Below, piece after piece: positions 1,994 through 61,546 of a DNA stretch of 64,000 nt. A program made the translations under genes and the position numbers. This DNA is from a bacterium. GTDB lineage: Bacteria > UBA8248. The notes beneath the pieces are model-generated. The model had not been told where the DNA came from. It searched no databases and saw only the letters and a program-made list of their open reading frames with translations. Where the stretch lies: assembly GCA_965203325.1 (NCBI GenBank), contig OZ241875.1, positions 2,242,702-2,306,701 of the forward strand, written 5' to 3'. Each line of letters opens with the position of its first letter. The stretch's first letter is position 1.

Positions 1994-3322
<1,329 letters not shown>

Positions 3323-4687: not shown

Positions 4688-4774
4688 CGGAGGGATGGCC
4701 GAGCGGCCGAAGGCGGTGGTCTTGAAAACCACTGAGCGAAAGCTCCGGGGGTTCGAATCCCTCTCCCTCCGCCA
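4688..4774 (+). tRNA. tRNA-Ser (anticodon UGA)
   Basis: Acceptor stem GGAGGGA/TCCCTCC, anticodon loop CTTGAAA, long variable arm, GGTTCGAATCC T-loop, encoded CCA. Confidence 0.9.
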
Positions 4775-5192: not shown

Positions 5193-6419
5193 ATGATTAG
5201 ACCCCCAGATATAAAGGGACTGGCGCGGCGTTGGCGTCGTGCGCCGCGACGATGGGGCCACCCTCTACACTCTTTGTGCTCGTACTTCGCCATGTTTCCG
5301 CCACAGGTTCCGTACGTATTCATTCGATGGCTTACTAAGCCTGGTGATGTCGTCTATGATCCGTTTGCCGGACGCGGCACTACACCTATGGAGGCATGCC
5401 GGATGGGACGCGTTGGCATGGGTTCGGATGCTAATCCCCTGGCGCACCTCCTTACCGCAGGCAAAGTAGACGCTCCAACCACTGATGAGGCACATACTCG
5501 CTTGAGAGTCTTGCGTGAGAATTGTGTCCCGGAGTGCCCGAGTTCAGCCCCTGCTGACATCCAGATGCTCTACTCAGGCCGAGTCCTCGGGCAGCTCATA
5601 TGGTTGCGAAATGCACTTAAAGTTAGCCAGCGTGATGACCGATTCCTAATGGCACTTCTCTTAGGGGTGATGCATGCCAACTATAGGCCCGGTGGACCGG
5701 TACACGGCTTGTCGATCAGTATGCCGAACACATTTTCGATGTCGGCGGGATATGTCCGGCGATATATTGAGGAGCATAGGCTCGTACCACCCGATGTTGA
5801 CGTCTTCGATCTTCTCGATTGGAAGCTGGGCAGGATGAGCTTGCCTGAGGCTACGGCAACGCGAGGCACCGCTTGGCAGCAGGACGCACGCAACCCCATG
5901 GCCACGACAATTTGCGACCGGCCTGCGAAGCTCGTGTTCACATCTCCCCCTTACCTTAGCGTCATCAAGTATGGGAAATACAACTGGGTGCGACTCTGGA
6001 TGCTCAAGCAAGAACCGGAAGTGGTTGATCGAGCACTCGTCGCGACTGGGTCTCTGCCGAAATACCTGCAGTTCATCAGTGCCGTCTTGACGCAGATGGC
6101 CTCAGCGATTCGGGAGGATGGATACCTCTGTCTGATGATCGGCGACGTTTATGATCGTTGCAAGGGAAAAACTACGAACCTCGCTGCCCAGGTCTGGGAG
6201 GAAGCTGCGCAACCACTTGGTTGGCGCCTTCATGGCATTGTTACTGACCGACTTCCAACTAAACACAAAGTCAGTCGAATTTGGAAGCAAAGGCGTGGGG
6301 AAGCGACGAAGACGGACCGTGTACTTATATTATCCCGCCCTGGAAACAACCTTACTCAGCTGCCTCCTCTTAGCCCTATACGGTGGGAGCCAGCTTCCGA
6401 GTGGGCTGCAGGAGGATAG
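5193..6419 (+). CDS. DNA methyltransferase (N6-adenine/N4-cytosine, PF01555-like, motif I then IV order)
   Basis: Motif I/X context FPPQVPYVFIRWLTKPGDVVYDPFAGRGTT, and motif IV TSPPY further C-terminal. Confidence 0.85.
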   Translation: MIRPPDIKGLARRWRRAPRRWGHPLHSLCSYFAMFPPQVPYVFIRWLTKPGDVVYDPFAGRGTTPMEACRMGRVGMGSDANPLAHLLTAGKVDAPTTDEAHTRLRVLRENCVPECPSSAPADIQMLYSGRVLGQLIWLRNALKVSQRDDRFLMALLLGVMHANYRPGGPVHGLSISMPNTFSMSAGYVRRYIEEHRLVPPDVDVFDLLDWKLGRMSLPEATATRGTAWQQDARNPMATTICDRPAKLVFTSPPYLSVIKYGKYNWVRLWMLKQEPEVVDRALVATGSLPKYLQFISAVLTQMASAIREDGYLCLMIGDVYDRCKGKTTNLAAQVWEEAAQPLGWRLHGIVTDRLPTKHKVSRIWKQRRGEATKTDRVLILSRPGNNLTQLPPLSPIRWEPASEWAAGG

Positions 6420-6424
6420 AAGTA

Positions 6425-8383
6425 ATGTTGATCAACGAGAGACTTAGGAACTTGGCGACAATAAATGTCTTCGAGGATGTCGCGATTGAGAACTCGTTTA
6501 TCGGGCGACCATTCTACTTCGACTTTAACAAGATGAAGATCTTGTCGAACGACCACTGGAAGGAAATGGTGGGTGGGGTCCCGGCTGGGGCTTTTCTTGC
6601 TGCACTATTCGACAACGACACGGAACATCCAGAGGTCGTACTTCTTCGTGTCCTTGGGCCAACTGCGCTTCCAACTGATTCAGATGTCGTCGCTGCAATG
6701 GTGGATCACTACAAGGAGAGTGAAGGAACGGAGACGGACTCGGGAACGCTCGACAGCTATACTAGGTACGAGTTTCAGTTCTCAGGCCTAGAGTGTAGAG
6801 TGCTCGGTTCTTTTTATCAGAATGCACAAGGCAATACATGCTTCGGGGCTGATGTCGACAACTTCTACGGCCCCAACAACTACTCGGTCTACAAACCTTC
6901 CGGTAACGTTTTGGAGTACCTAGTGAATTTCCGTGAAGGCGACGGACTTCCCGGAGGACCTGGAGATCAAAGAATCGGTGAAATCCGCTACTCGTCAAGC
7001 CAGCGGCACACTCAGGATGCTTCTGTCCCTCTGTATGTGTCGGCCCTTGACTACTTAGGAAAACGCACAGCGCTCTTCGGAATGAAGCGTACAGGAAAAT
7101 CCAATACCGTCAAAAAGATCATTCAGGCAACTGTAAACTTGGGATCAGCGGGAATTGAGCATGAGGGTGAGCAGCTTGTCCCAATAGGGCAGATCATTTT
7201 CGATGTAGACGGTGAATATGCCAATGCGAATCTACAAGACGAAGGAACCGCGGTTTTTGAGCTTTTTGAGAACGAGACCATCCGATACTCCACCCACCCA
7301 AAAGAAGGCTTCCGTGTGCTCAAGGTGAACTTCTACAACGAGGTTGATCTGGGATTCGAGCTCATATCCAGTGATCCGAGAGTCGCGGACGACACAACGA
7401 GATTTGTGTCGAACTTTAGAAGCGTAGAACTGACGCAGCCTGACCAAGAGAACGTGTCTGAGATAAGGCGCTGGGAGCGACGTAGGGCTGTGTATTTTTG
7501 CATTCTGCACGAGGCAGGTTTCGCTGCGCCTCAGACTTTCCAGGTTCGCTTTTCGGCTAATGCTGAAGTTCGAAACGCTGTGGCTCTTAACTTCGAGGCA
7601 GACCGTAGGGGATATATGCGCCTCACTCTGCAGCAAGCCTCCGCATGGTGGCAACGTTTTTGGGAAGTGTATGCCGCCGACCCCAACGGTTGCTTTGCAC
7701 AATACAAACGCGACCACGATAGCCGACCTTGGGCTGAAGATGATCTTGAGGCCCTGCTCACAATGCTCACAAGACGGCGCACGTCCGGAGGGGCAGTCGA
7801 CTGCAGCGGTTTTCGTGTCTTGCGGGAGATCGCCGAAAAACACACATCGACACTACAGACTTCATTTGAGGATGACATCCTTCAGCAGTTACGTGAGGGG
7901 AGAATCGTAATTGTTGATCTCTCGCTCGGAGATGACATCACGAAGCGTTTCTTCTCCGAGAGAGTATGCCGTCGTATATTCGATGATGCAATGCTCCGCT
8001 TCACTCAGATGCAGACACAAAACTTCATTCAGATGTATTTTGAAGAAGCGCACAATTTATTTCCGAGGAAAGAATCTGCCGACCTAACCCAGATCTACAA
8101 TCGTATTGCAAAGGAGGGTGCGAAGCTCCGACTTGGACTCGTCTACGCCACCCAGGAAGTTAGCTCGATATCAGCGAACGTTCTCAAAAACACACAGAAC
8201 TGGTTCGTGTCGCACCTTAACAATCAAGATGAGCTTCGCGAGATAGCTAAATATTACGACTTCGAGGACTTCGTGGATAGCCTTCGACGAACGACCGACA
8301 AAGGGTTCATTCGAATGAAGACGTACTCCAACGCGTTCATTGTACCCGTGCAGATCGACCGGTTCACAGTGGCGGAGACATAA
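6425..8383 (+). CDS. HerA/DUF87-like P-loop ATPase (FtsK-HerA superfamily) with a ~200-aa N-terminal domain of unknown function
   Basis: Walker A GMKRTGKSNT, Walker B-like IVIVDLS plus EEAHNLFP (DEAH-like), and the HerA C-terminal motif KLRLGLVYATQEVSS...NTQNWFVSHLNNQDE. The start is probably ATG 6425 after GGAGGA; the track starts at 6383. Confidence 0.65.
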   Translation: MLINERLRNLATINVFEDVAIENSFIGRPFYFDFNKMKILSNDHWKEMVGGVPAGAFLAALFDNDTEHPEVVLLRVLGPTALPTDSDVVAAMVDHYKESEGTETDSGTLDSYTRYEFQFSGLECRVLGSFYQNAQGNTCFGADVDNFYGPNNYSVYKPSGNVLEYLVNFREGDGLPGGPGDQRIGEIRYSSSQRHTQDASVPLYVSALDYLGKRTALFGMKRTGKSNTVKKIIQATVNLGSAGIEHEGEQLVPIGQIIFDVDGEYANANLQDEGTAVFELFENETIRYSTHPKEGFRVLKVNFYNEVDLGFELISSDPRVADDTTRFVSNFRSVELTQPDQENVSEIRRWERRRAVYFCILHEAGFAAPQTFQVRFSANAEVRNAVALNFEADRRGYMRLTLQQASAWWQRFWEVYAADPNGCFAQYKRDHDSRPWAEDDLEALLTMLTRRRTSGGAVDCSGFRVLREIAEKHTSTLQTSFEDDILQQLREGRIVIVDLSLGDDITKRFFSERVCRRIFDDAMLRFTQMQTQNFIQMYFEEAHNLFPRKESADLTQIYNRIAKEGAKLRLGLVYATQEVSSISANVLKNTQNWFVSHLNNQDELREIAKYYDFEDFVDSLRRTTDKGFIRMKTYSNAFIVPVQIDRFTVAET

Positions 8384-8386
8384 CTT

Positions 8387-9733
8387 ATGGGATATGGCTC
8401 CAAGGGACGAAAGCCTATAGAGCGCGCCAGTAAGATTGCGCACGCAGAGATTATCAAAAACCCGGAAGTCCAAGCTTATATGAGAGAATGTATAGTCCCA
8501 TCTGCGCCTGGCGTGGAGTCACTCGACTCTATGATTGAGACGCTCGGCGAAGTGGATACCTCAGAAGTGACTGCGGTCGTCGCTGTGGATGGTGGCTACA
8601 CAGAGACCTATGTGCGTGAGGAGTATCCTTCGGCCTCCATTACGTTTTTCACATTCGGTCCCCTATTGTTTGAACTTGCTGACCTCCGCGCATTGGACAA
8701 AAAGAGGTTCATTGCGCCAGAAGAGCTCGCTCGCCTTAAGAGAATCGAGCGCTACACCCTTGTGTTGCCGACGAAGGGTATTCGGCGTCAGGACCAACAG
8801 TCCCTGTCAGCCACGATCCGGCGCACTGTATACGAGTTCTTCACAAAGCCACGTGGGGAAGACGATAATCTCATGGTCAGCCTCAAGTGGTTTCTATTCA
8901 GGCGTTGGAAGCGGAATCCAGACAATGGTCTAGTTCAGATTGTTGAGCACTGTCCATCAGATTGCGGTCACGGAGCAACGAGTTTCCTTTTTGAGGAGCA
9001 GACTGAGAAAAGCTGTCCTAAGTGCGGGCGACCAGTTTATCTTACGGATGTCTTCCGGCTGCAAGAGCGGATCGATGAGGAGCTAGGTGCGGGAGGAATC
9101 AGTGCCTATGTAATGACAATGCTGGAACAACTAGTTCTCATACACCTGTTCTACAACATAATAGAGCGCCTCAAGCCCAGCCTGATGCGGAGCATCTTAT
9201 TCATCAAGGATGGACCATTGGCCTTTTTCGGTCTGGTTGCTCCGCTGTGTCGGCCCATGCGGGAGCTCGTGCAGCACCTACTCAGCGAGCCCGGAGGACA
9301 AATGGGGCCAACGCTCAGGCTCGCCGGATTAGAGAAGAGTGGAGCATTTGTCGAACACGCTGCAGCGATCCAGGACCTTATGGAGCCTAACTCCTACATG
9401 ATTGTTAATGATGGCTATATCCGGCGACATATCGTGCCAGGAGAGGTCGGCGTGGTGTATGGACAAAACACATACTACGGCCAAAAAGTGTTGTTCCGGG
9501 CACCGGGTGGGGAGATGCACGTCGTGACGATCCCGGCCCAAAGCTATATGGCAGATCCGAATCCCTCGGAAATGCCCCACCTCGAAGATGTGCTGACACT
9601 CATCGCCGAGCTTCGATGCAGTATGCACGATAATTCGTTGATTCCTGTTGCATTGGCAAACAAACTCGTCTCGCTTTCTGACTTCCCGAGCCAGCGCATC
9701 CTAACGACTTTCGCGAGAGAGAACATCCAGTGA
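8387..9733 (+). CDS. NurA-like / RNase H-fold putative nuclease with internal zinc ribbon (partner of the upstream ATPase)
   Basis: AVDGG near the N-terminus (NurA motif I is xDGS), a CPSDC...CPKCG zinc ribbon, and acidic motifs IKDGPL and IVNDGY. It is translationally coupled to the upstream gene (4-nt gap). Confidence 0.4.
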   Translation: MGYGSKGRKPIERASKIAHAEIIKNPEVQAYMRECIVPSAPGVESLDSMIETLGEVDTSEVTAVVAVDGGYTETYVREEYPSASITFFTFGPLLFELADLRALDKKRFIAPEELARLKRIERYTLVLPTKGIRRQDQQSLSATIRRTVYEFFTKPRGEDDNLMVSLKWFLFRRWKRNPDNGLVQIVEHCPSDCGHGATSFLFEEQTEKSCPKCGRPVYLTDVFRLQERIDEELGAGGISAYVMTMLEQLVLIHLFYNIIERLKPSLMRSILFIKDGPLAFFGLVAPLCRPMRELVQHLLSEPGGQMGPTLRLAGLEKSGAFVEHAAAIQDLMEPNSYMIVNDGYIRRHIVPGEVGVVYGQNTYYGQKVLFRAPGGEMHVVTIPAQSYMADPNPSEMPHLEDVLTLIAELRCSMHDNSLIPVALANKLVSLSDFPSQRILTTFARENIQ

Positions 9734-15837: not shown

Positions 15838-16446
15838 CTACATCTCGCGGCGGCCTTCGAGGGAGCGGGTGAGCGTCATCTCGTCCGCGTATTCGAGATG
15901 GCTGCCCATGGGAAGGCCGTGCGCCAGCTGGGTGACGCGCACGCCGAGCGGCTTGAGCACCTGTGCGAGATAAAGGGAAGTCCCCTCGCCCGCCATGTTG
16001 GGGTTCAGGGCCAGGATCACCTCTTTCACTTCGCCCGCCTTCACGCGCTCGATGAGCCCGGCTATGGTGAGGTCTTCGGGCTCCACGCCGTCCAGGGGGG
16101 AGATGACGCCCATCAGCACGTGGTAGCGTCCCTTCACGCCCCCCGCGCGCTCCACGGCGAACACGTCGGCGGGTTCTTCCACCACGCAGATGACGCTCGG
16201 GTCGCGCGCGCCGCACACCGAGCAGTCGGCGCCTCCCGCCTCACCCTCCACGAGCATGGAACACGTGCCGCACAGGCCCACCTTTTCATGCAGCGCCTCG
16301 CAGGAGGCGGCGATTTTCCCGGCGGCCTCGGGATCCTTGCCCAGTAGATGGAAGACGATTCGCTGCGCGCTCTTCGGCCCCACCCCCGGAAGACGGCGGA
16401 ACGCCTCAATGCACTCTTCGATGGCGGGAAAGCGGCTCAACTGCAT
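15838..16446 (-). CDS. recR: Recombination protein RecR
   Basis: Full-length homology: HhH (PGVGPKSAQR), C4 zinc finger, Toprim. Confidence 0.95.
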   Translation of the reverse strand: MQLSRFPAIEECIEAFRRLPGVGPKSAQRIVFHLLGKDPEAAGKIAASCEALHEKVGLCGTCSMLVEGEAGGADCSVCGARDPSVICVVEEPADVFAVERAGGVKGRYHVLMGVISPLDGVEPEDLTIAGLIERVKAGEVKEVILALNPNMAGEGTSLYLAQVLKPLGVRVTQLAHGLPMGSHLEYADEMTLTRSLEGRREM

Positions 16447-16537
16447 GGCGTTTTCTCACTCGGGTCTCAGGCGGCGGCCCGGAAGCGACGATAATGACGA
16501 TATAAAACGACGCGCGGCGCGGAGGCCGCGCACCTGC

Positions 16538-16855
16538 TCAGAACATGCCGGGAATGGGCAGGCCGCCGGTGAGTTTCTTCATCTCCTCGGACATCATGTC
16601 CTTGCCTTTGCGGGACGCCTCGTTGCACGCGGCGCGCACCAGATCCTCGAGCATCTCCACGTCGTCGGGGTCGACCACCTGCGGGTCTATCTTCACCGAG
16701 ACTACCTCGCCCGCCCCGTTGGCGACCACGTTCACCATCCCCCCGCCGGCGGAGGCCTCCACCGTCTTCGCCGCCATCTCCTCCTGAAGCTTGGCCATCT
16801 TGTCCTGGATCTGGCGCGCCTGTTTCATCAGATTGCCGATGCCGCCTTTTAACAT
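16538..16855 (-). CDS. ybaB: YbaB/EbfC nucleoid-associated protein
   Basis: 105 aa family signature; the conserved dnaX-ybaB-recR arrangement. Confidence 0.9.
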   Translation of the reverse strand: MLKGGIGNLMKQARQIQDKMAKLQEEMAAKTVEASAGGGMVNVVANGAGEVVSVKIDPQVVDPDDVEMLEDLVRAACNEASRKGKDMMSEEMKKLTGGLPIPGMF

Positions 16856-16886
16856 GAGAATCTCCCCGAGGTAGTTCCCTCACCAC

Positions 16887-18617
16887 TCAAGCGAATGTAT
16901 TTCCACCCGATTTTCGCATCCGCCCCTGGCGAATGTCGACTATCTTTCCGTTGAACAAATCCACGATCTCCTGGATCACGGCCTCTTCACTCTCATCCCG
17001 TTTCCGGCCATGCGCATTGCTCTTCTCTCCGGCCCCCTGCCCGGTTTGCGAACGCGCGCCGTTTTCCGCGCCCGCTATCTCGACCCTGGCGCTCCAGGGG
17101 GAATGCTCCCGGAAAAACTTCTCGATTTCGGGCCGCACCTCCTCCGCCATGTGCAGGCCCTGCGCGTTTCGGTTCTCCCGGGCAAGCACCACGCGGACGG
17201 TTCCTTCCGTTTCCAGATCGAGCTCCACGCCGTGAAAGAGCGGGCGCCTCATCGGGCGCAAGGCCTTCACCGCTCCGGCCCACACGCGCCGCGCCTCTAC
17301 GGAGTTCCACTCCTGCGCTTCGGCTTGGGCGACGGGAGAACCCCCCGAAGCAGGTTCACCCGCAGGCGGCGCAGGCTCGGGCGCCGCGGTTTCCCGGGCA
17401 GCCGGAGGCGGCGCGGCGGCGGGAACCTCCCCTCCCGGCGAGGGGGCGCGCGGGGGATTCGGCGCCGCTCCCCCGCTCATGGATTCGAGCCGTTCCATCA
17501 ACGCGCCCAAATCCGTAATCGGCTCAATCTGGCACATGCGGAGAATCGCGACCTCGAGCGTCATGCGGGGATGATCCGATGTCCTGAGTTCGAACTCCGC
17601 ACCCTGCAGAATGGAATACGCCTGATGCGCCTCGGCGAAACTCATCTTCGCGGCTACCTGCCTGCGCTCTTCGATCTCGGAAGCCGCCACGTCGAAGAGC
17701 GCCTCATCGTCGCCTGCGGAGAGGAGCACCATGCAGTCGCGCAGATACTCGAGCAGGTTCGAGGAGAAGAGCTTGAGGTCGTGGCCCGCGTCGAAGAGGT
17801 TCTTGAGCTCGGTGAGCGCCTTGTTGCCGTCGCGCGCGACCACCGCCTCGACCAGGGCTTTATAGATGCTGCCCGACGGCACACCGAGCACCTTTTCCAC
17901 TTCTGCGCTCGAAACCGGATCCTCGGCGGCGAAAGCGAGCACCTGATCCAGCAGGGATTGCGCATCGCGGATGCTGCCCTCCCCCATCCGCGCCAGCAGC
18001 TTGACGGCCGCATCGTCCATCTTCCGCTCCTGCGCCTCGACGATCCTCAAAAGATGTTCCGCGATGACAGAAGTCGTGATCCGCCGGAACTCGAACACCT
18101 GGCAGCGGCTCAAAATGGTGTCGGGGACGTTCTTGATCTCCGTGGTGGCCAGAATGAAGACGACGTGGGGCGGGGGTTCCTCGAGCGTCTTGAGCAGCGC
18201 GTTGAACGAGCTTTTGGAGAGCATGTGCACTTCATCGAAAATCACCGTCTTGTAGCGCCCGCGCGCGGGCTGGTAGCGCAGCCCCTCGCGCAACTCGCGC
18301 ACGTTGTCCACCCCCGTATAGGTGGCGGCATCGATTTCGAGAATATCGGGATGGCTTCCTGCGGTGATCTCCTCGCACGACGAGCACGCGTTGCACGGTT
18401 CGGGCAGCGGCCCATCCCCCGATTCGCAGTTGAGCGCCTTGGCGAGAATGCGCGCGGTGGTCGTCTTGCCGACCCCGCGCGTCCCGCTGAACAGATAGGC
18501 GGAGGCGACGCGCCCCGAGGCGAGCGCGTTCGATAGCGTTCGCCGGATATGCTCCTGGCCGATGAGTTCCCCGAAGCGCTGCGGACGCCATTTCCTGGCG
18601 CTGCCGATGAAGGACAT
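16887..18617 (-). CDS. dnaX: DNA polymerase III subunit gamma/tau
   Basis: ARKWRPQRF...GTRGVGKTT Walker A, zinc module CNACSSC. The start is probably M15 of the track ORF. Confidence 0.95.
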   Translation of the reverse strand: MSFIGSARKWRPQRFGELIGQEHIRRTLSNALASGRVASAYLFSGTRGVGKTTTARILAKALNCESGDGPLPEPCNACSSCEEITAGSHPDILEIDAATYTGVDNVRELREGLRYQPARGRYKTVIFDEVHMLSKSSFNALLKTLEEPPPHVVFILATTEIKNVPDTILSRCQVFEFRRITTSVIAEHLLRIVEAQERKMDDAAVKLLARMGEGSIRDAQSLLDQVLAFAAEDPVSSAEVEKVLGVPSGSIYKALVEAVVARDGNKALTELKNLFDAGHDLKLFSSNLLEYLRDCMVLLSAGDDEALFDVAASEIEERRQVAAKMSFAEAHQAYSILQGAEFELRTSDHPRMTLEVAILRMCQIEPITDLGALMERLESMSGGAAPNPPRAPSPGGEVPAAAPPPAARETAAPEPAPPAGEPASGGSPVAQAEAQEWNSVEARRVWAGAVKALRPMRRPLFHGVELDLETEGTVRVVLARENRNAQGLHMAEEVRPEIEKFFREHSPWSARVEIAGAENGARSQTGQGAGEKSNAHGRKRDESEEAVIQEIVDLFNGKIVDIRQGRMRKSGGNTFA

Positions 18618-18680
18618 CAAGAATCCATCCCAAGGATTTCCGCCGTTGAAGGGCCCCATACCCCGTGAGCGGCGCGCAGA

Positions 18681-18815
18681 CCCTGCGATGGAGTCGACCG
18701 GTCAGGCGCCCTCGTGGCACCCGGGAGTGTCCACTTACCGCTGCTTCCTTCCGGACCTGACGGGGTTCGCGGGCTCCCGCCGCACGAGACCCAACCGGCC
18801 GAATCCATCGCAGGC
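18681..18815 (-). ncRNA. ffs: Signal recognition particle RNA (4.5S/ffs)
   Basis: The minus strand reads ...CCCCGUCAGGUCCGGAAGGAAGCAGCGG... (the conserved domain IV motif) inside a long hairpin whose ends CCUGCGAUGGA/UCCAUCGCAGG pair. It lies upstream of dnaX as in many bacteria. Confidence 0.8.
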
Positions 18816-19162: not shown

Positions 19163-19417
19163 TGATTCGTTTTTTGTGGGCTTTTTCAACAACCCCCTTC
19201 AACAAGGGATTCTCCCGTAGTAGGACAGGTCGCGACCTGTCCCTCTACACAACCGCAATCGCTCCCTCATCGTCCAGAATCGGTTCTAAAGAGAAATGCT
19301 GCGGGCATCGCCAATTCACGCGGAATGGGGTTACAATGGATTTTTAGTCATCTGGTCGCAAATTCCCCCGGCGCAAGTCTTCTGTTCGTCGCCGAACAAG
19401 GAAAGGCCGCCGTACGC

Positions 19418-20281
19418 ATGTCGTATTCCGGGATTGCCGAACTCGCGGAGGGAAAAGTCTACGCCCTCCACAACACGTTCCCGCTGGACGGGCGGATCAG
19501 CGCATACCCCATCAGCGCGCGCGGGCACAGCGTCTCGAACTGCTATCTCCTGAAAGAAGACGCGGGCGCGCTCCTGCTCGATACGGGCTACGCCGCCCAC
19601 GAAGAAGAAATCCTGGCGCAGCTGGAATCCCTCATCGCGCCGGATACGCCGCTGCACCTGCTCCCGCTGCGCATCAACGAATTCATGTCGGTGGGAAACG
19701 CCATGGCGGTCGCCAAGCGCTTCAACGTGGTGGAGTGCCTCGCCCCCGTGCCGGAAATCAACGAGTGGCTCGAGTTCGAAGCGATCGAGCCGAACGAAGC
19801 GAACAACGGCAACCCCATCCTGCCCACCACGATACTGAAGCCGCTCCACCCGCTTGAAATCGGCGATAGATACATCGAGGTGATGAACGCGCCGATCCGC
19901 CTCATCAGCACCCGCTGGATTTACGATGCGGCCACGCGTATCCTGTTCACCTCGGACATGTTCAGCCACCTCTGGGCGGAGGGGGCGGAAGGCCCCTGGC
20001 TGCTGGATGAAGACAACGCCACGACGACTTCCTTCGTCCGCTCGTTCCTGCTGAACACGCGCTACTGGTGGCTCGAGGGCGCGAGGACGGACTCCATCCG
20101 AAAAGGCATCACGGAAGTATTCGAGCGCTACGACATCGAGACCATCGCTCCGGGATACGGCGCGGTTCTGCGCGGGCGCCGTCTGGTCGAGCAACAATTC
20201 GCCGTGCTGGATGAAGTTCTGGCGGGTCTCGACCGGGGCGTCGTCAAACCCCAATACGTCGCGCTGGGTCTGGAAAGATAG
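19418..20281 (+). CDS. MBL-fold ODP-like (oxygen-binding di-iron protein / flavodiiron N-domain-like) paralog 1, metal ligands degenerate
   Basis: Colinear with the downstream paralog, but the His motifs are replaced (LLLDTGYAAHEEE). Start ATG 19418 after AGGAAAGG. Confidence 0.55.
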   Translation: MSYSGIAELAEGKVYALHNTFPLDGRISAYPISARGHSVSNCYLLKEDAGALLLDTGYAAHEEEILAQLESLIAPDTPLHLLPLRINEFMSVGNAMAVAKRFNVVECLAPVPEINEWLEFEAIEPNEANNGNPILPTTILKPLHPLEIGDRYIEVMNAPIRLISTRWIYDAATRILFTSDMFSHLWAEGAEGPWLLDEDNATTTSFVRSFLLNTRYWWLEGARTDSIRKGITEVFERYDIETIAPGYGAVLRGRRLVEQQFAVLDEVLAGLDRGVVKPQYVALGLER

Positions 20282-20289
20282 GAGCACAC

Positions 20290-21051
20290 ATGAGTCATCC
20301 CCTGCCCCGAGAAATATCGCCCGGCGTCTTCTGGCTCGGCGACTGCCTGGTCCAGCACTCCCAGGGCAAGATATATCACTCCTACAACGCGGCCTTCCTC
20401 GTCATCGGATCAGTTGCCTCCATGCTGATAGAGACGGGACATCCCAAGGATTTCCCGATCATCGAACGCCAGATGAGGGACATCCTGACCCGAGGCGGAG
20501 GCCCGCTCAAACACCTGTTCCTGACCCATCAGGAGACGCCCCACTCGGGCGGTCTGGGCCGCGTGCTCGATAGATACCCCGACCTCACCATCCACGGGGA
20601 CATGTGCGACTACCACCTGGCGTTTCCCCAGCACGAGGGCCGCTTCCGGGAGATGCGCGTGGGAGACGCCATCGACCTGGGCGATACGAAGTTCATGGCC
20701 GTGGAGCCGGTGATCCGGGACTTGCGGAGTTCTCTCTGGGGATTCGAGACCAAAGGGCGCGTGCTGTTTCCGGGAGACGGCTTCGCCTACAGCCACTACC
20801 ACACGGACGGCCACTGCGGGATGTTCGCCGAAGAGGCGACCTCGCTCGATCTCGTCGACGTGCTGGGCGTATTCGCCGAACGCGCCCTGTACTGGACCAC
20901 CTTCACTGACATGAACGTCTACGCCGACAAGCTCGAAGAGTTGATGGATGAACTGGACGTCGAAGTCGTCGCGCCGACGCACGGCCTGCCCATACGCGAC
21001 ATCGCGCAAACAATGCCGAAAGTGAGAGAAGGCCTCGTACGGGGCGACTGA
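20290..21051 (+). CDS. MBL-fold ODP-like di-iron protein paralog 2
   Basis: THQETPH (HxExxH-type), HTDGHCG and GDGFAYSHYH motifs. Confidence 0.6.
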   Translation: MSHPLPREISPGVFWLGDCLVQHSQGKIYHSYNAAFLVIGSVASMLIETGHPKDFPIIERQMRDILTRGGGPLKHLFLTHQETPHSGGLGRVLDRYPDLTIHGDMCDYHLAFPQHEGRFREMRVGDAIDLGDTKFMAVEPVIRDLRSSLWGFETKGRVLFPGDGFAYSHYHTDGHCGMFAEEATSLDLVDVLGVFAERALYWTTFTDMNVYADKLEELMDELDVEVVAPTHGLPIRDIAQTMPKVREGLVRGD

Positions 21052-21719: not shown

Positions 21720-21937
21720 ATCCGCATTCCCCCCGACCGGGCGCGGCGGCGGAACGCGGTCCCTTCGCCGCACCGGCCATTCATAGATTTGGTGACCACC
21801 TGTTTAGCAGGCTCGCCGGAATTCCTCAATCAGGCCCGCCGGTTCCAGTCTCCGGAAACTATACTTGGCGAAGCGTTTGTCGTATCCTGCGCGCATCAAC
21901 GAAATCATGCGAACCATATATTCATGAGGAGAAATCC

Positions 21938-22498
21938 ATGACAGGTCCTGTAGATGGACACAGCACCTCCACCGTGCCGGGCGAGCGCGTCATCGACAAG
22001 CCCGAACTCCCCAAAGGGGGGCTGTATACCGACAACACCGTCCACACCGAGATGCACGAAGGCTCCCTGCAGCTCAAGCGCGGAACGGCGGGCAAGTTCG
22101 AGATTTTCTGCGACGAGGGCGCGAACATCGGCGGCACGGCGCAATACCCCACGCCGATGGCCTATCTCGCCATGGCGACGGGGTTCTGACTGCTCACCCA
22201 GGTGTCGCGGTACGCGCACATGATGAAAATGGAGATCAAGGGAGCGAGCGTCTCCGTCCGGTTCCGAAAGCTGCTGGGCGGCTCGGTGCTCAAAGGCACC
22301 GTGTTCAACAAGTGGGAGGCCGTGGACACACATCTCAAAGTCGAATCGGACGAACCCGCCGAAAAGCTCGCCCACCTCATCAAGAACGCCAAGAACGGCT
22401 GTTTCGCCGAGGCCCTGATCACCGAGCCGGTGCCGCTCCACTCCACCGTGGAGGTGAACGGCGAACCGTTCGAGATAGAGGGAATCACGGCGGATTAA
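21938..22498 (+). CDS. OsmC/Ohr-family peroxiredoxin-like protein with an in-frame TGA (22187-22189) at the peroxidatic Cys position. It is a candidate selenoprotein, or otherwise a pseudogene.
   Basis: Both track ORFs (21938-22189 and 22202-22498) are in the same frame. GGTAQYPTPMAYLAMATGF-TGA-LLT aligns with OsmC GG..P.P.ELLLAALAGC. The second conserved Cys (NGCF) is present. A GAGGAG SD precedes the ATG. Confidence 0.55.
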
Positions 22499-22520
22499 CC
22501 CCCATACCTGGAGTTTTTTC

Positions 22521-22973
22521 ATGGAATACTTCCACGCATCTGAGGATATCGCCTTCGGCTCGCAGCCCGAGCCCGCGGATCTGGAGTCCCTCGCCGCAAG
22601 AGGGGTCAAGACCATCATCAACACGCGCTTTCCTGAAGAAGACCAGGGCGACCTCCCGCCCGAGCGCGCAAAGGCCCAAGCCGAGGCGCTGGGAATGCGC
22701 TACGTGAACGTCCCCGTCTCGCCCGCCGAGTTCAGCCCCGCCTCGCTGGCCGAGGTGAGCCGCGCTCTCTCAGAAGCCAAGGCCCACGGAACGACCTTCG
22801 TCCACTGAAAGGCCACGGGGCGGGCCGGGATTTGCTCGCTGAACCATCTGGCGGATGAGAACGACTGGAGCGCGCGGGAGATGGAGGGGGCCGCCGACGC
22901 CACCGGCTTCGACTGGCGCGACGCGCCGTTAGCACCCAAATACCGCGAGTTCTTCGCAAGGAGGCCCGGGTAG
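22521..22973 (+). CDS. DUF442/TIGR01244-like (rhodanese/phosphatase-like) protein with an in-frame TGA (22806-22808) replacing the CX4R catalytic Cys. It is a candidate selenoprotein.
   Basis: ...AHGTTFVH-TGA-KATGRAG... matches the family motif VLaHC(R/K)SGtRs. The frame continues to TAG at 22971. Confidence 0.5.
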
Positions 22974-23404
22974 GCGCAAAAGGGCCGTCGTATCCCCATC
23001 CATCAAGGGCTTAATCTTTCCTGCGCCCTGAACGCCATTCGGCGGGGATGCGCGCCGCGCTTCAGAGGTTGTTGAAAAAGCCCCTCGATATGGGAAAACC
23101 ACCGTCATTCCGGCGAAAGCCGGAATCCAGAGCCAACGAGGAGAGCAACACCGCCGAACGGCTGGCAAAACCGACAAAGCAAAAAAACCAAAAACAAATT
23201 CACTGGATTCCGGCTTAAAAACATGCCGGAATGACGGTCGGGTCGGGCGGACACACAGGTCCGCCCCTACACCCCATTGCGTTTTTGCGTAGGGGCGGAC
23301 CTGTGTGTCCGCCCGATCTCGAAACGGTTTTTTTCACCAGACCCTTGTCAGGGGGGAGTCAACAGCCGCTTCAGTAGGCCGTCTTTCCCGACCCCCCGGT
23401 CCGC

Positions 23405-50253: not shown

Positions 50254-50472
50254 CTAATCTCCCTGCGCATCCTTGTATTCTTCGAGCCACGCCATCTGGA
50301 TGGCTTCGAGCTTGCCCTCCGTCGAGGACATCGGCTCGTCGTCGAACTCCTCGAGCTCGCACACCCACTCGTGCAGATCCGTGAAACGCACGGAAAGCGG
50401 GTCTATCTTCGGAAATTTCTCGTACAGCGCGATGCCGATGTCCTCGGCGTCTTCCCAGCCGAACGTGTCCAC
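50254..50472 (-). CDS. iscX: Fe-S assembly protein IscX
   Basis: 72 aa; VRFTDLHEWVCELEEFDDEP matches IscX. Confidence 0.85.
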   Translation of the reverse strand: MDTFGWEDAEDIGIALYEKFPKIDPLSVRFTDLHEWVCELEEFDDEPMSSTEGKLEAIQMAWLEEYKDAQGD

Positions 50473-50497
50473 CAGTTTCTCTCCTGAACCGAATTTT

Positions 50498-50854
50498 CTA
50501 ATGGGCGTGTTGCTCGCGGGCCGCGTCCGGGCCTTCCTGCACGAGGTTCACGTTCCAGAACGGCACCTCGATCTCGATGACCTCGTCCGTGTCGGACTCC
50601 AGAGTCGCCTGGCAGGCCAGCCGGCTGTCGAGGTCAACGTCGCGCGCATCGTCGAGCTGGTCTTCCTCATCCTCGGTGGATTCGTTGAACGAATCCGCGC
50701 CCGTGCGGATCTTCACGTGGCACGTCGAGCATGCGCACACGCCGCCGCAGGCATGATCCAGGTCGAAGCCGTTTTCGAGCGCCACTTCGAGAATGTTCTC
50801 GCCCACGTGGATCTCTAACGTCTGTTTCTCTTCCGTGAAATGTAGTTTCGCCAT
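50498..50854 (-). CDS. fdx: ISC-type [2Fe-2S] ferredoxin
   Basis: CGGVCACSTC ... LACQ cysteine pattern. Confidence 0.9.
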   Translation of the reverse strand: MAKLHFTEEKQTLEIHVGENILEVALENGFDLDHACGGVCACSTCHVKIRTGADSFNESTEDEEDQLDDARDVDLDSRLACQATLESDTDEVIEIEVPFWNVNLVQEGPDAAREQHAH

Positions 50855-50893
50855 TTTCTTCCCCTGCGCCCCGCTGGAATCTCCCCGCGGTTA

Positions 50894-52729
50894 CTAGTCT
50901 TTGAGGGCTTCGCTCACCCTCTTGTTCTCCAAGGCAGATTTCAAAACGTTATCCATCATCCGCTCTGCGAGCGGCATCGTCACTTCGTTGAGGGCGTCGA
51001 CCATATCGCGAATTAGGCCCGCGTCCTCTCCCCGGCAGGCTTCTTCGAGCGCGCTCACGGCTTCTTGAATCTTCGCGCGCTCCTCGGGAGAGACGGCATC
51101 CTCTTCATAATCGTTCATCGCACGGGCCGCCGCCATGAGGATCGTCTCCGCCTCGGTTCTGGCGTCCAGAACCTGGCGGGAGCGGATGTCCTGCTCGGCG
51201 TGCTCGAAAGATTCGATGAGCATGCGCTCGACCTGCTCATCCGTCAGCCCATAAGAAGGCTGCACCTCCACCGAGGCCGCCTTGCCGCTCTTGAGATCCC
51301 GGGCCGTCACGTTCAGGATGCCGTTCGCGTCGAGCAGAAACGTCACCTCTACCCGGGCGAGGCCGGCGGGTGCCGGGTCGACCGCGAGGCGGAAACGCGC
51401 GAGCGAGCGGTTGTCCTTCACCAGTTCGCGCTCGCCCTGGAGCACGTGGATGTCCACGCCCGTCTGGTTGTCCTTGAAGGTGGTGTAGGTCTCCCTCGCG
51501 CTCGTGGGGATGGTGGTGTTGCGCGGAATGATCCACCCCATCACGCCGCCCATCGTCTCGATGCCCAAAGAAAGCGGCGTCACGTCGAGGAGCAACATGT
51601 CTTTTCTGCCGCCTCCCAGGATGTCCGCCTGCACCGCCGCGCCCAGGGCCACCACCTCGTCGGGGTCCAGGTCCGCATGCGGGCGCTTTTCGAACAACTC
51701 CTCCACCATACGGCGTATGAGGGGCATGCGGGTGGACCCGCCCACCAGAACGACCTCGTCCACCTCCCCGGGCGAGAGGCCCGCGTCCTGGAGCGCACGC
51801 CTGCAAGGCGCCAGCGTGCGCTGGGCGATGGGCCAGAGGAGCGCTTCCATCTCCTCCCGGGTGAGGCTCCCCTTGTGAGCGAGCGGGACGCCGCCGGGGT
51901 TTTCGATGACGTACTCCGTGGAATCGCCCTCCGAGAGCGTCATCTTGACGTTTTCGGCCAGAAGCGTCAGTTCGGCCAGCGCCTCGGGCGTCTCGCTCAA
52001 ATCCACGCCGTGCTGTTCAAGGATTTCCTCCTGAATGCGGCGGGAGATCGCCAGATCGAAATCGTCTCCGCCCAGGTGGGTGTCGCCGCCGGTGGCGAGC
52101 ACCTCGAACACGCCGTCCTTGATCCTCAAGAGCGAGATGTCGAACGTGCCGCCGCCCAGGTCGTAGACCGCGACGACGCCCCGGTTCCGCTCGTGAAGAC
52201 CATAGGCGAGAGAGGCCGCCGTGGGCTCGTTGATGATGCGGAGCACTTCGAGGCCCGCGAGTTTGCCCGCGTCTTTCGTCGCCTGACGCTGCGCGTCGTT
52301 GAAATACGCGGGCACCGTGACCACCGCCCGAAGGACGGGCCGGCCGAGCGTTTTCTCCGCTCGGGATTTCAGGCGCCTCAGCACCAGGGCGCTGATTTCG
52401 GGCGCACTGTAGGAGCGCCCCTGCGCCAGCACATGGACGACGTCTCGCTCATCGGGGTCGGCATCGAAGGGCAGGTGGCGCATATCGTCCTTCACGTCCT
52501 CATAGCCCCTGCCCATGAACCGCTTGATGGAAAAGATGGTGTTCCGGCTGTTGGAGACGCGCTCATCGTGCGCCTCATCGCCGGTGAAAACGCGGTCGGA
52601 GCGAAAGCTCACCACGGAAGGCACGATGCCGCGCTCGCCCTCGGGCGCGAGTATCGCCGGCTCTCCTCCCGACACGGAAGCGACCAGGCTGTTCGTCGTG
52701 CCCAGGTCGATTCCGACGATCTCGCTCAT
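50894..52729 (-). CDS. hscA: Fe-S cluster assembly chaperone HscA (Hsp70)
   Basis: [10 protein letters not shown]..., full Hsp70 architecture. Confidence 0.95.
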
Positions 52730-53367
52730 TCACTCTCCTCCAGGGCGCGCTTGAGGCTCGTGAGGGTGTTCTCGATGTAGTTCCTCAGCCCGAGAATGGA
52801 GCGCATCCTCCTGATCACTTCAGATGGGGCAGGTTCGTCTTTTTCGAGCGCCTCGTCCCAGTCGGCGCCCAGCATTTCGAGCGCCATGAGTTGTCCATCA
52901 CGAAGCGTCGAAAAGCACTCCATGGCCGCGTTCAGGCGCTCGCGCAAATTCTCGGCTTCCTCTTCGTCCATGCAGCACTGAAACTCCTCCGCCGCCTCCT
53001 GGGCTTCGAATATCTCCTCGAACAATTCGGGCGGGGGCCTCCTCTCGTTCTCGTCGAGCTTTCCGCTTTCGAGCTGCACGAGGTAGACGACGCGCGCAAT
53101 CGGATCCTTGAGGGTCTGGTACGCGTCGTTGATGCGAGCCGTCGCGTCCAGGCTCCTGATCCGCACCGAGGCGGGCGCACTCATGAAAAAATCGGGATGA
53201 AGCCTGCGGTTCAGTTCATAGAACTTCGATTCGAGCGCGCCGGCGTCGATGCCGAACCTGCGCTCCAGCCCCAGCAGCGCGAAGTGATCCACCCCGGCGG
53301 GAATCGCCTCAATTTCACCCTCTTCGTTGAAAACGGTAAAAGGTTTTTTTTTCGTCGCTTCGCTCAT
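52726..53367 (-). CDS. hscB: Co-chaperone HscB (J-domain)
   Basis: J-domain HPD (RRLHPDFF) plus C-terminal helical domain; the start is probably M8 of the track ORF. Confidence 0.85.
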
Positions 53368-53472
53368 CTCGCGATTCCAGGCCCGCATGAACCGCCGGGC
53401 GATTTGAACCCAAAAGAAAAACGCGTCGCTATCCCATGCGGCATGGGCGCGGCGCGTTTCATCCCGGTTGCG

Positions 53473-53829
53473 TTACGCGGAAAAACTTTCCCCGCAACCA
53501 CAGGACTGGCGTGCGTTGGGGTTCTTGAACACAAACCCCTTGCCCATCAGCCCGTCTTCAAAATCCAGCGTGGTGCCCGCCAGGAAAAAGAGGCTCTTCT
53601 TGTCCACGACCACGCGGACGCCGTCTTTCTCGAACACCTCGTCCATCAGCGGGTTGATGCGTTCCTCGCCCTCGAACTGGAGGACGTAGGAAAGCCCGGA
53701 GCAGCCTCCTCCCTTCACGCCGACGCGGAGAACGTGGCCCTGCGCCCCTTCTTTCTCCATGAAGCGGTTCACGTGCTCCACAGCCTTGTCGGTAATCTCG
53801 ATGCTCAGTCTTTTCGCGGCCGTATCCAT
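53473..53829 (-). CDS. iscA: Fe-S cluster insertion protein IscA/ErpA (A-type carrier)
   Basis: GGGCSG ... CGCGESF motifs. Confidence 0.9.
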   Translation of the reverse strand: MDTAAKRLSIEITDKAVEHVNRFMEKEGAQGHVLRVGVKGGGCSGLSYVLQFEGEERINPLMDEVFEKDGVRVVVDKKSLFFLAGTTLDFEDGLMGKGFVFKNPNARQSCGCGESFSA

Positions 53830-53860
53830 TTCCTGCCCCTTACACGCGAATCGCCCGCTT

Positions 53861-54274
53861 CTAGTGGTGGTGGCCCTTGCGCTCGACGACCGGTATCCCG
53901 TTTTTCTCGCGAAAATCGTTCAGCGCGGTCTTGATGGCGTCTTCGGCCAGCACGGAACAGTGGATCTTCACCGGCGGGAGATTCAACTCCTCGACGATCT
54001 GCGTGTTCTTGATCTCCTCGGCCTCGTCCACCGTCTTGCCCTTGAGCCACTCGGTGGCCAGGGAGCTCGATGCGATGGCGCTTCCGCAGCCGAAGGTCTT
54101 GAACTTCGCATCCTCGATGAGGCCGCCCTCGTCCACCTTGATCTGGAGCTTCATCACGTCGCCGCATTCGGGCGCGCCGACGATGCCCGTGCCCACCGTC
54201 TGGTCGCTCTTGTCGAGCGAGCCGACGTTGCGCGGGTTGTTGTAGTGATCGACCACCTTATCGCTGTAAGCCAT
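53861..54274 (-). CDS. iscU: Fe-S cluster scaffold IscU
   Basis: GAPECGDVMKLQI, LPPVKIHCS. Confidence 0.95.
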   Translation of the reverse strand: MAYSDKVVDHYNNPRNVGSLDKSDQTVGTGIVGAPECGDVMKLQIKVDEGGLIEDAKFKTFGCGSAIASSSLATEWLKGKTVDEAEEIKNTQIVEELNLPPVKIHCSVLAEDAIKTALNDFREKNGIPVVERKGHHH

Positions 54275-54358
54275 TTTCCCGTTCTCCTCTTTCCAGTTGC
54301 TGCGATTCCGGATTTCTGCGAGCCGCAGGCTCTATATCAAAATAAGCTCAACGCTCCT

Positions 54359-55579
54359 TTAATGCGACTGCCATTCCACCTTGGAGAGGTCCACGCCCTC
54401 TTTCACCATCTCATAAAGCGGGCTCATCTCGCGAAGCCGGTTCACGATGTCCGTCGTCTTCTCGGCCACGTAGTCTATCTCCTCCTCGGTGGTGAAGCGG
54501 CCGAAGCCGTAGCGAATCGAGGAATGCGCCAGCTCGTCGCCCCGGCCCATGGACTTGAGCACGTAGCTCGGTTCCAGGCTCGCCGAGGTGCAGGCCGAAC
54601 CCGAGGATACGGCCACGTCGCTCAGCCCCATGATGAGCGATTCGCCCTCCACGTAGGGGAAGCTGAGGTTCAGGTTGCCCGAGAGGCGCTTGGTCTCATG
54701 GCCGTTCACGTATACCTCTTCCAAACTCTCGAACATGGTCGCCTTGAACTTGTCGCGCAGGTTCGTCAGACGGATGTTCTCTTCTTCCATCTCCTCCATG
54801 CACAACTCGGCCGCCTTGCCGAAGCCGACGATGCCCGAGACGTTCAGCGTACCCGAGCGCATTCCCCGCTCGTGGCCGCCGCCGTCGATGATGGCCGACA
54901 GCCTCACGCGCGGCCTGCGCCTGCGGACGTAAATCAACCCCACGCCCTTGGGCCCGTAGACCTTGTGGGCGGTGGCCGAGAGGAGGTCGATGTTCATCTC
55001 GTCCACGTCGATGGGAATCTTGCCGTAGCCCTGCGTGGCGTCGGTGTGGAAGAGGATGCCGCGGCCCCGGCACAGCGCGCCGATCTCGGCGATGGGGTTC
55101 AGCACGCCGACCTCGTTGTTCGCCGCCATGATGGAGACGAGTATGGTGTCGTCGCGCAGGGCGTTCTCGACCATCTCCGCCGTCGTGATGCCGTCCTCGG
55201 GAGGCTCGATGTAGGTGACGTCGAAGCCCCACGTCTCCAGGCGTTTGGCGGAGTCGATGATGGCCTTGTGCTCGATCGCCGAGGTGACGATGTGGTTGCC
55301 CTTTTTCTTGTACATCTCGGCGACGCCCTTGAGCGCCATGTTGTCCGATTCCGTAGCCCCGCTGGTGAAGATGATCTCGCGCGGGTCCGCGCCGATGACG
55401 GCGGCGAGTTTCTCCCGGGCGTCGTCCACGGCCTTTTCCGCCTCCCAGCCGAAGCTGTGGTTGCGGCTCGCGGCGTTTCCGAACTTGTCGTCGAAGTAGG
55501 GATTCATCTCCTCGAGGACGCGCGGGTCCATGGGCGTCGTCGCCTGGTAGTCCATATAGATGGGGAACTTCAAGCTCAT
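54359..55579 (-). CDS. iscS: Cysteine desulfurase IscS
   Basis: PLP-lysine [14 protein letters not shown], active-site SSGSACTS. Confidence 0.95.
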
Positions 55580-56001
55580 CTGATCTCTCCTGCAGGCGTA
55601 CCCACCATGTCCTGAAGGGTCATTCCTTCAAGCACGTCGGTCACCTTTTTCTGGATCCTTTCCATGGGATAAAAAATGGTGCATTTCTCGTATTGTTCAC
55701 AGCCCGTGGCGTCGCCGATCTGGCACGTCGCCATCGCGATGGGCCCCTCAATCGCCCGGATGACTTCGGCCACCGAGATGGTCTCGGGCCTGCGCGAGAG
55801 AACGTAGCCGCCCTTGGGGCCGTTTCTCGACTCCACGAGGTCATTTTTGGCCAGAAGCTGCATCGTCTTCGCGAGCAGCTCGGCGGGAATGCGGAACCGC
55901 TCCGCGATGGCGCGCGAGGTGATGGATCCCTCCTCTTCGCACTCCGCGAGGTAGCAAAGAGCCATCAAGCCGTAATCCGTACGCTTTGCAATTGCGAACA
56001 T
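55576..56001 (-). CDS. iscR: Rrf2-family Fe-S regulator IscR
   Basis: The wHTH start and the Cys ligand cluster (CQ...C...C) typical of IscR. Confidence 0.9.
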
Positions 56002-61027: not shown

Positions 61028-61546
61028 ATGTCCGGCATTTTCGACAAGACTTCTCTTTTTCTCGCGGGCATTGCGCTGCTCCTGGCGTTTCTGGCGTATC
61101 AGAAATCCGGCGAGCTGCCCTGGGCTCCCGCGGGCCGCGCGGGAAGCCTCATCGTGAACATTCTTCCCAAGCTCGTGATCGGCATGTTCATCGGCGCGCT
61201 CGTGGCCGACGTCCTGCCGAAGGAGATTCTGCAGAACTGGCTCTCCGATCGCTCCGGCTGGCGCGGCATCTTCGTCGGATGGCTGGCGGGGTTCATGTTC
61301 CCCATGGGCGCGCCCTTCGTACTCTATCCGCTCGTGGCCGGGCTTCTGCAGGGGGGTGCGGGCTTCGGGCCGATGATAACGATGCTCACCTCAGCAGCCC
61401 TGATCGGCCCGGTGCGCGCGTTCGCGTATGAAATCCCCATCCTCGGATCGGAGTTCTTCATGTTCCGCGTAATGGCCGTGTTCTGGATTCCGCCCGTGGC
61501 GGGCCTCGTCGCGCAAACGCTCGCGCGCGTCCTGAAAGGCGGCTAG
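61028..61546 (+). CDS. Hypothetical membrane protein (permease-like)
   Basis: 4-5 TM helices. Confidence 0.5.
   Translation: MSGIFDKTSLFLAGIALLLAFLAYQKSGELPWAPAGRAGSLIVNILPKLVIGMFIGALVADVLPKEILQNWLSDRSGWRGIFVGWLAGFMFPMGAPFVLYPLVAGLLQGGAGFGPMITMLTSAALIGPVRAFAYEIPILGSEFFMFRVMAVFWIPPVAGLVAQTLARVLKGG

Follow-up and report, generated by a model that had tools for sequence, protein, structure and literature searches.

In OsmC and Ohr (organic hydroperoxide reductase) proteins, the first of two conserved cysteines is the peroxidatic one and the second is the resolving one. An OsmC-like selenoprotein family, with the motif UxxT (U is selenocysteine, or Sec) and a predicted selenocysteine insertion sequence (SECIS), was reported as new in the selenoproteome of the Sargasso Sea (Zhang, Fomenko & Gladyshev 2005, PMC1088965), and the family (PF02566, UxxT) is one of the 119 in a catalogue of prokaryotic selenoproteins from 2026 (PMC13188914). 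Here we analyze a gene of this type from a 64-kb stretch of contig OZ241875.1, from a bacterium of the UBA8248 lineage; we refer to the whole stretch as the window. The gene, at 21938-22498 on the + strand, is interrupted by an in-frame TGA, and a model that read only the DNA letters had flagged it as a likely selenoprotein (the sequence-only reading). As judged by comparison with its relatives, the gene very probably encodes an intact 186-residue OsmC-like selenoprotein of the known family, with the UGA recoded to Sec. The flagged finding is correct but ordinary: the gene's family has been known since 2005 and has a dedicated NCBI model. It is followed by a second gene with its own in-frame TGA.

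The OsmC-like gene and its relatives

The OsmC-like gene is a single frame of 186 codons, which include one UGA (codon 84), followed by TAA. That TGA, at 22187-22189, is the only internal stop. The translation around it is ...GGTAQYPTPMAYLAMATGF-*-LLTQVSRYAHMMK..., or, more widely, ...IGGTAQYPTPMAYLAMATGF-*-LLTQVSRYAHMMKMEIKG..., where the asterisk is the TGA. The putative Sec (U84) lies in the context ATGF-U-LLTQ, and codons 84-87 spell the motif U-L-L-T. A ribosome-binding site, GAGGAG, can be read off the sequence at 21926-21931 (+), 6 nt 5' of the ATG. A program that lists open reading frames (ORFs) breaks the gene into two pieces, 21938-22189 (83 amino acids) and 22202-22498 (98 amino acids). 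Translation of 21938-22498 agrees with the sequence-only reading that the two pieces share one frame with a single in-frame TGA.

For profile searches, we wrote U as C in the query. The protein matches NCBIfam NF041052 (OsmC_like_Se, "OsmC-related (seleno)protein") with 168.2 bits (the cutoff is 95; E = 1e-49) and coverage of positions 3-144 of the model's 144. Pfam's OsmC model (PF02566) matches residues 66-167 with 49.1 bits (gathering threshold 27.5). By these matches, the gene is a regular and intact member of the known NF041052 or "OsmC-like, UxxT" family. The sequence-only reading had stated that OsmC-like selenoproteins were already reported, and this is right (PMC1088965, PMC13188914). 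Compared to the described family (PMC1088965; NF041052), the window's gene has the same fold (PF02566/COG1765 type), the same Sec motif UxxT, and a hairpin directly downstream, without any essential difference. Some features are specific to the window's clade (sponge- or marine-type Nitrospinota/UBA8248). These are a Ser codon (UCG) in the hairpin, where most members have the Ala codon GCG; a bulge that has moved by one position; and the pairing with a second TGA-containing gene.

Sequence and profile searches of the PDB put U84 at the first conserved cysteine in five solved structures from the OsmC family: 3cje (LTGCVMTQ), 2opl (LSGCLTTS), 2onf (LASCLLTT), 9wo1 (LGACTAMT), and 2pn2 (LASCMLTI). 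(1vla matched only at E = 0.62.) Taken with the Pfam and NCBIfam matches, these structures settle which fold the protein has. Cys155 (TGT at 22400-22402, + strand; motif NGCF) is invariant in the protein alignment and aligns with the second cysteine of 3cje (KKGCF) and 2onf (KYCF), so it is a candidate for the resolving cysteine; the sequence-only reading had noticed that this cysteine is kept. The same reading placed the TGA at the peroxidatic cysteine. The alignment with the first conserved cysteine holds, while the word "peroxidatic" would follow only from the position in the fold.

Compared to the OsmC/Ohr organic hydroperoxide reductases (PF02566; for example E. coli OsmC, or Ohr from Xylella or Pseudomonas), the window's protein shares the fold and the two redox positions, but it appears to have Sec instead of the first cysteine, and it has an N-terminal extension with a conserved GERVIDKPELP motif. 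Also, the closest solved structures (3cje, 2opl, and 2onf) are of uncharacterised OsmC-like proteins, not of assayed peroxidases.

A protein-database search found full-length homologues with cysteine at the U84 position (P0001, GFCLLTQV; P0002, GMCLLTQM; 49-53% identity). It also found fragments that end or begin near the TGA: P0005 ends with ...IGF, and P0004 starts with MMKM. Full-length proteins with cysteine, together with fragments that are broken at the TGA, are the pattern that we expect for a selenoprotein family that is mis-called by gene callers. In the DNA that encodes P0005, which is from a metagenome (locus L001), there is a TGA at the same codon, and then the frame is open and conserved.

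To find orthologous loci, we scanned one genome per species (from GTDB). The patterns for the scan sit beside the Sec codon and not on it, so the scan is not biased towards TGA or TGC. Of the 148 relatives found, we kept 80, which are 63-99% identical over residues 1-186. The 80 orthologous loci are from Nitrospinota (L003-L029, 69-99% identity), many Betaproteobacteria/Burkholderiales, an Acidimicrobiales, a metagenome-assembled genome (MAG) of Woeseiaceae, and others. Two of these orthologues are 98-99% identical to the window's gene and are already in public MAGs (L003, CBDBEV010000001.1; L004, JAJEJD010000024.1). The TGA is at the identical codon in all 80 of these species-level loci and in the metagenome locus L001. 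Even L063, which reads MMR instead of MMK, has the TGA.

Our comparative set comprises 81 distinct nucleotide sequences and 155 aligned codons. Each of the 81 sequences has exactly one stop among those codons and no frameshift. Within the Nitrospinota clade, we computed the ratio of nonsynonymous to synonymous substitution rates (dN/dS). Downstream of the TGA (codons +15 to +88; 284 pairs), the median dN/dS was 0.12 and the maximum was 0.29, while upstream of the TGA, the median was 0.19. So the constraint on the gene after the "stop" is no weaker than the constraint before it. Immediately after the TGA, codons +1 to +5, which encode L L T Q V, have 100% amino-acid identity across the 81 sequences and change only synonymously. 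For example, the first leucine is encoded by CTG, CTA, or CTT, the other by CTC, CTT, CTA, TTA, or CTG, and the valine by GTG or GTT. This synonymous-only variation implies that translation runs straight through the UGA in frame.

One additional homologue looks different. A metagenome contig (JX_forest_Scaff09342910, locus L002) has TGG, which encodes Trp, at the Sec codon (472-474 of the contig), although the sequence of the SECIS hairpin is kept. It also has a frameshift about 40 codons past the Sec codon (at about 590-600), so it might be a decaying copy or an assembly error. We considered L002 as a sign that the family is decaying and set this aside, as just one metagenome contig of 1.3 kb stands against 81 sequences that are intact. 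We therefore regard L002 as either a local pseudogene or an error of assembly.

The hairpin after the UGA

In the SECIS of E. coli fdhF, there is a bulged U (U17) and a loop with G23 and U24. More broadly, the consensus model of the bacterial SECIS (bSECIS), which is that of Zhang & Gladyshev as summarised in a 2026 review, has an apical loop of 3-9 nt and an upper stem of 4-16 bp (Fig. 2A of PMC13188914). It also has a G among the loop's first two nucleotides, usually followed by G or U; a spacing of 16-37 nt from the UGA to the loop; and a minimum free energy no higher than -7.5 kcal/mol (PMC13188914).

The window's candidate SECIS is a hairpin at 22202-22219 (+), within the coding sequence of the OsmC-like gene; the evidence for it is its folding, its agreement with the bSECIS model, and its frozen synonymous sites. 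It begins 12 nt after the UGA and has 7 bp with a bulged U: GUG-U-CGCG, the loop GUA (22210-22212), and CGCG-CAC. A weak lower stem extends it to 22194-22226. The sequence-only reading was right that there is a hairpin with the loop GUA shortly after the UGA, but it put the start at about 15 nt and described a perfect stem (8+8) instead of a bulged one with 7 bp. The spacing from the UGA to the apical loop is 20 nt (22190-22209, as checked by a script), the loop has 3 nt and begins with GU, and the stem has 4+3 bp. In its 48-nt context, the hairpin lies within all of the published constraints for a bSECIS. Its energy depends on which stretch is used (the model's limit being -7.5 kcal/mol): -9.6 kcal/mol over 48 nt counted from the UGA, or -6.7 kcal/mol for the 18-nt hairpin alone. 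Just 4.8% of recodings that preserve the peptide have all of the structural features of a bSECIS.

Compared to the SECIS of the fdhF type or to the consensus bSECIS, the window's hairpin likewise follows the UGA closely and lies within the coding sequence, and it is a stem-loop with a small loop that starts with GU and a bulged U. However, its loop is very short (3 nt) and its stem is just 4+3 bp; binding by SelB is predicted. Counting the U of the UGA as 1, the bulged U is at +19 and the G and U of the loop are at +24 and +25, instead of the U17 and G23/U24 of fdhF.

The comparison of orthologues is more informative. Codons +6 to +9 form the core of the hairpin and encode [A/S]-R-Y-A. Across the 81 sequences, they are GCG or TCG, then CGG, TAC, and GCG, with zero synonymous variation. 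In contrast, at 67 other conserved degenerate codons, the synonymous entropy averages 1.15 bits, and the minimum is 0.20 bits. The forms with cysteine encode the same R-Y-A with other codons (GCA CGT TAT GCG in L083; GTC CGT TAT GCC in L084), and both lack a G in the loop positions. L083 can still be folded, with the hairpin shifted; by eye, we saw no equivalent stem in L084. As these codons are frozen in the TGA forms while the Cys forms use others, the constraint acts on the RNA and is specific to the TGA forms. Overall, the comparative data are strong evidence that the hairpin is under selection at the RNA level.

The hairpin occurs in two registers. Most lineages have GUU-GCGCG...CGCGC-AC, with a perfect stem of 6 bp and an energy of -8.5 kcal/mol (the betaproteobacterial form). 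The window's clade has GUG-U-CGCG with the Ser codon, and the pairing is kept by shifting the bulge.

How the UGA is read

Comparison of the orthologues shows read-through of the UGA and selection on the RNA of the hairpin. From the membership in the family and the match to the SECIS model, we infer that Sec is the residue inserted and that SelB takes part. The UGA at 22187-22189 would be recoded to Sec during translation, with the hairpin at 22202-22219 (12 nt 3', loop GUA) acting as the SECIS. The hairpin would recruit SelB·GTP·Sec-tRNA(Sec) to the ribosome, and the chain would continue as U-LLTQVSRYAHMMK and end at the TAA (22498). By analogy to the OsmC/Ohr thiol peroxidases, the selenolate of Sec84 would attack a hydroperoxide or another oxidised substrate and become Se-OH. 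Cys155 (NGCF) would resolve this selenenic acid to a selenenylsulfide (Se-S), which would then be reduced by a cellular thiol reductant. A selenol-based peroxidase or reductase cycle seems most likely, and a peroxidatic role for position 84 is suggested by its place in the fold.

Several observations weigh against this reading. First, the machinery for Sec is not near the gene. We searched the window with ARAGORN, and we compared 40 of about 60 candidate ORFs to NCBIfam, while the genes of the isc region (50-56 kb) and a few others were checked by eye. These searches of the 64-kb window found no selA, selB, selD, or tRNA-Sec (ARAGORN found two tRNA-Ser genes). Also, when ARAGORN was applied to the flanks of 60 related loci, it found no tRNA at all. 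Second, the glutamate of the P-E-E-L motif of Ohr/OsmC is methionine here (P-M-A-Y, by eye), and this residue, Met74, is invariant in the protein alignment, so the catalytic details may differ from those of Ohr/OsmC. Third, there is L002, with its TGG and its frameshift.

The remaining observations of this kind concern the hairpin. The minimal hairpin (-6.7 kcal/mol) is weaker than the model's -7.5 kcal/mol. The folding energy is unremarkable compared to dinucleotide shuffles (z = 0.24), and 22% of synonymous recodings fold as well. If we consider just the one sequence, the evidence for the hairpin is weak, and only weakly above chance. The core never varies across the 81 sequences, so there is no compensatory covariation, and encoding the A-R-Y-A peptide already favours a sequence that is partly palindromic. 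Rfam had no match to a SECIS, either at gathering thresholds across the whole window or at E up to 10 for 21900-23000. This negative is uninformative, as a SECIS of this type may have no model in Rfam.

The lineage itself is rich in selenoproteins. BSepDB, for which a genome had to have two or more of SelA, SelB, and SelD to be scanned, includes three MAGs from "Nitrospinota"/GTDB-UBA8248 among its top ten bacteria by number of selenoprotein genes, with 48-54 each (PMC13326102). One of these three, FO_M_Nitrospinota_01, which has the Sec pathway and 54 selenoprotein genes (PMC13326102), is the source of one of our orthologous loci (L025).

We considered three other explanations. UGA might be decoded as one of the standard amino acids (Trp, Cys, or Gly), either by near-cognate suppression or because the genetic code is altered, but this is unlikely. 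It would fit with the lack of Sec machinery in the window and with the TGG at this site in L002. However, TGA closes many ORFs of coding composition in the window (for example, serS at 3322), which implies that the code is not reassigned. Also, the site is the position of the catalytic cysteine, where Sec is a known substitute, and the conserved SECIS-type hairpin is present in the TGA forms only. Both the curated model and the literature treat the family as selenoproteins (NF041052; PMC1088965; PMC13188914), and a relative from the same phylum-level group, the genome that contains L025, encodes the Sec pathway along with about 50 selenoproteins.

Splitting of the gene is very unlikely. In that case, the UGA would end a peptide of 83 residues, a C-terminal peptide would start at the ATG-ATG (22220-22225) or at the GTG (22202), and the two would assemble non-covalently. 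Gene callers do predict such fragments (P0004 from MMKM, and P0005 to ...IGF), and the ATG-ATG pair is invariant. But the ten codons from the UGA to the ATG-ATG are 100% conserved as amino acids and vary synonymously, which implies that they are translated in frame. They are also colinear with the continuous CLLTQVARYA of the Cys homologues and of solved structures; this stretch is a helix in OsmC folds. By eye, we saw no motif similar to a Shine-Dalgarno sequence before the ATG-ATG.

There is almost no chance that the gene is a dead pseudogene in which TGC or TGT mutated to TGA: an in-frame stop is what one would first take for a pseudogene, and the L002 homologue is degraded (TGG with a downstream frameshift), but the TGA is found in 80/80 species from several phyla, and so is ancient and maintained, the downstream dN/dS (median 0.12) is below that upstream with no second stop or frameshift in any sequence, the full-length protein exceeds the cutoff of the curated selenoprotein model NF041052 by a wide margin, and the orthologues are 81 distinct nucleotide sequences instead of copies of one. 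The sequence-only reading had itself named a recent nonsense mutation with decay of the downstream sequence as what would refute it, and both the conservation of the TGA and the strong purifying selection downstream contradict this.

Recoding of the UGA to Sec thus remains our explanation for the OsmC-like gene. The assignment of U84 to the TGA draws on the conservation across orthologues, the Cys homologues, the OsmC structures, and the published UxxT motif. The wider proposal that the gene encodes a selenoprotein has stood up, given the family model and the hairpin as well as the conserved TGA and the selection downstream of it.

The second TGA-containing gene and the rest of the window

A gene of 150 codons at 22521-22973 (+), 22 nt downstream of the OsmC-like gene, has its own in-frame TGA at 22806-22808 (+). 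The translation around this TGA is ...AHGTTFVH-*-KATGRAGICSL.... The protein matches Pfam's BLH_phosphatase/DUF442 (PF04273) with 45.3 bits (gathering threshold 26.1) and also matches the N-terminal domain of Blh. It scores 45.6 bits against the sulfur transferase model TIGR01244, below the cutoff of 85.85; it is a distant relative of TIGR01244 and not a member of that subfamily.

The TGA of this DUF442-like gene is at the position of the catalytic cysteine of the P-loop (FVH-U-KATGRAG). A homologue with cysteine (P0035) has FVHCKAIGRAG, encoded with TGC, and distant phosphatase-like homologues (P0059-P0063) also have cysteine at the U position, in motifs of the type FVHCxxGxDRTG or HCxxGxxR. 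The FVH and R101 are invariant in the alignment. Compared to DUF442/BLH_phosphatase (PF04273), the P-loop FVH-[C/U]-KAxGRAG is conserved, but the neighbour appears to have Sec in place of the catalytic cysteine.

In 19 Nitrospinota loci (L003-L022 without L020), the OsmC-like gene is likewise followed by the DUF442-like gene and its TGA. The TGA is present in 20/20 sequences, the codons after it change only synonymously, and the dN/dS downstream is 0.19. In the protein databases, about 50 clusters for this protein are exactly 95 amino acids, so they span just the part before the TGA. NCBI labels one of these 95-residue clusters as "sulfur transferase domain-containing protein."

There is a candidate SECIS for this gene as well, at 22819-22840 (+), which we propose from its fold and its invariant codons. 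It has a 7-bp stem and an 8-nt loop, CGGGAUUU (22826-22833). The loop is 17 nt from the UGA and has G at its second position. Codons +6 to +11 are invariant across the 20 sequences, with the change of CGG to CGA turning a G-U pair into an A-U pair. The hairpin agrees with the bSECIS model, and so do 16% of synonymous recodings.

The DUF442-like gene is probably a second selenoprotein in the same operon as the OsmC-like gene. We did not find a DUF442, PF04273, or phosphatase-like selenoprotein in the 2026 catalogue of 119 families (PMC13188914) or in full-text searches, although a paper or a supplement could list it under another name. There is perhaps an even chance that this is an undescribed family of selenoproteins: DUF442/BLH-phosphatase-like proteins with the protein tyrosine phosphatase fold (of the sulfurtransferase type) and with Sec in the P-loop, encoded in a two-selenoprotein operon in Nitrospinota/UBA8248. 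In this lineage, the OsmC-like gene would be co-transcribed with an apparent selenoprotein that resembles DUF442-type sulfurtransferases or phosphatases. The pairing hints at a shared function in sulfur or selenium redox chemistry.

Across the 80 orthologous loci, we found no functional partner of the OsmC-like gene that is kept across phyla, and outside of Nitrospinota, the gene context is variable (for example, binding proteins of the Bug/TctC type). One "cluster" of neighbours that seemed to be shared across loci turned out to be noise from antisense ORFs. Two crude scans of the window for more candidates with an in-frame TGA found nothing convincing, but neither scan recovered the OsmC-like gene, and the first also failed to recover the DUF442-like one, so this negative carries little weight. 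A candidate at 59576 was rejected because it is two adjacent genes in one frame.

Just upstream of the pair, at 19325-21051 (+), are two tandem genes with the metallo-beta-lactamase (MBL) fold; they have weak matches to ODP or flavodiiron-like MBL domains. ORFs at the positions of these tandem genes, if clustered by sequence similarity, recur in 17-19 loci in the Nitrospinota range. In Blh, a DUF442 domain is fused to a persulfide dioxygenase with the MBL fold. Because of this fusion, a functional link between the MBL genes and the selenoprotein pair is conceivable.

Farther away, a small membrane protein (61028-61546, +) with a weak match to the efflux transporter SaoE converges on a gene at 61543-62442 (-) that resembles two-domain rhodaneses or 3-mercaptopyruvate sulfurtransferases and has weak matches to models for rhodanese-type selenoproteins. 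This pair of genes (61028-62442) may be involved in handling sulfur or selenium. Near the other end of the window, three large ORFs at 5193-9733 (+) lie beside a tRNA-Ser gene (4689-4774). Their third-position GC content is 0.56-0.59, versus about 0.8 elsewhere, and they have weak matches to models for the anti-phage-associated DUF1156 and for HerA helicase. The region looks like a horizontally acquired island next to a tRNA gene, and is perhaps a defence system. SerS (1997-3322, identified by NCBIfam) is encoded 1.4 kb upstream of the tRNA-Ser gene. The RNA of the signal recognition particle is at 18697-18796 (-), by Rfam. By eye, we also identified ORFs that resemble dnaX-ybaB-recR (15838-18659) and the isc operon for iron-sulfur clusters (iscR-iscS-iscU-iscA-hscB-hscA-fdx, 50254-56001). 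These regions, including serS, are ordinary housekeeping landmarks.

For annotation, standard gene callers split the OsmC-like gene into two fragments, as with P0004 and P0005, and pipelines that are not aware of selenoproteins will mis-annotate it. The OsmC-like gene's SECIS, frozen at synonymous sites across several phyla, is unusually clean and is a possible test case for SECIS predictors. The DUF442-like neighbour is a more useful lead than the flagged gene. If it is undescribed, it adds a family with a phosphatase/sulfurtransferase fold to the selenoproteome, and the pairing would suggest a functional partner for the OsmC-like family.

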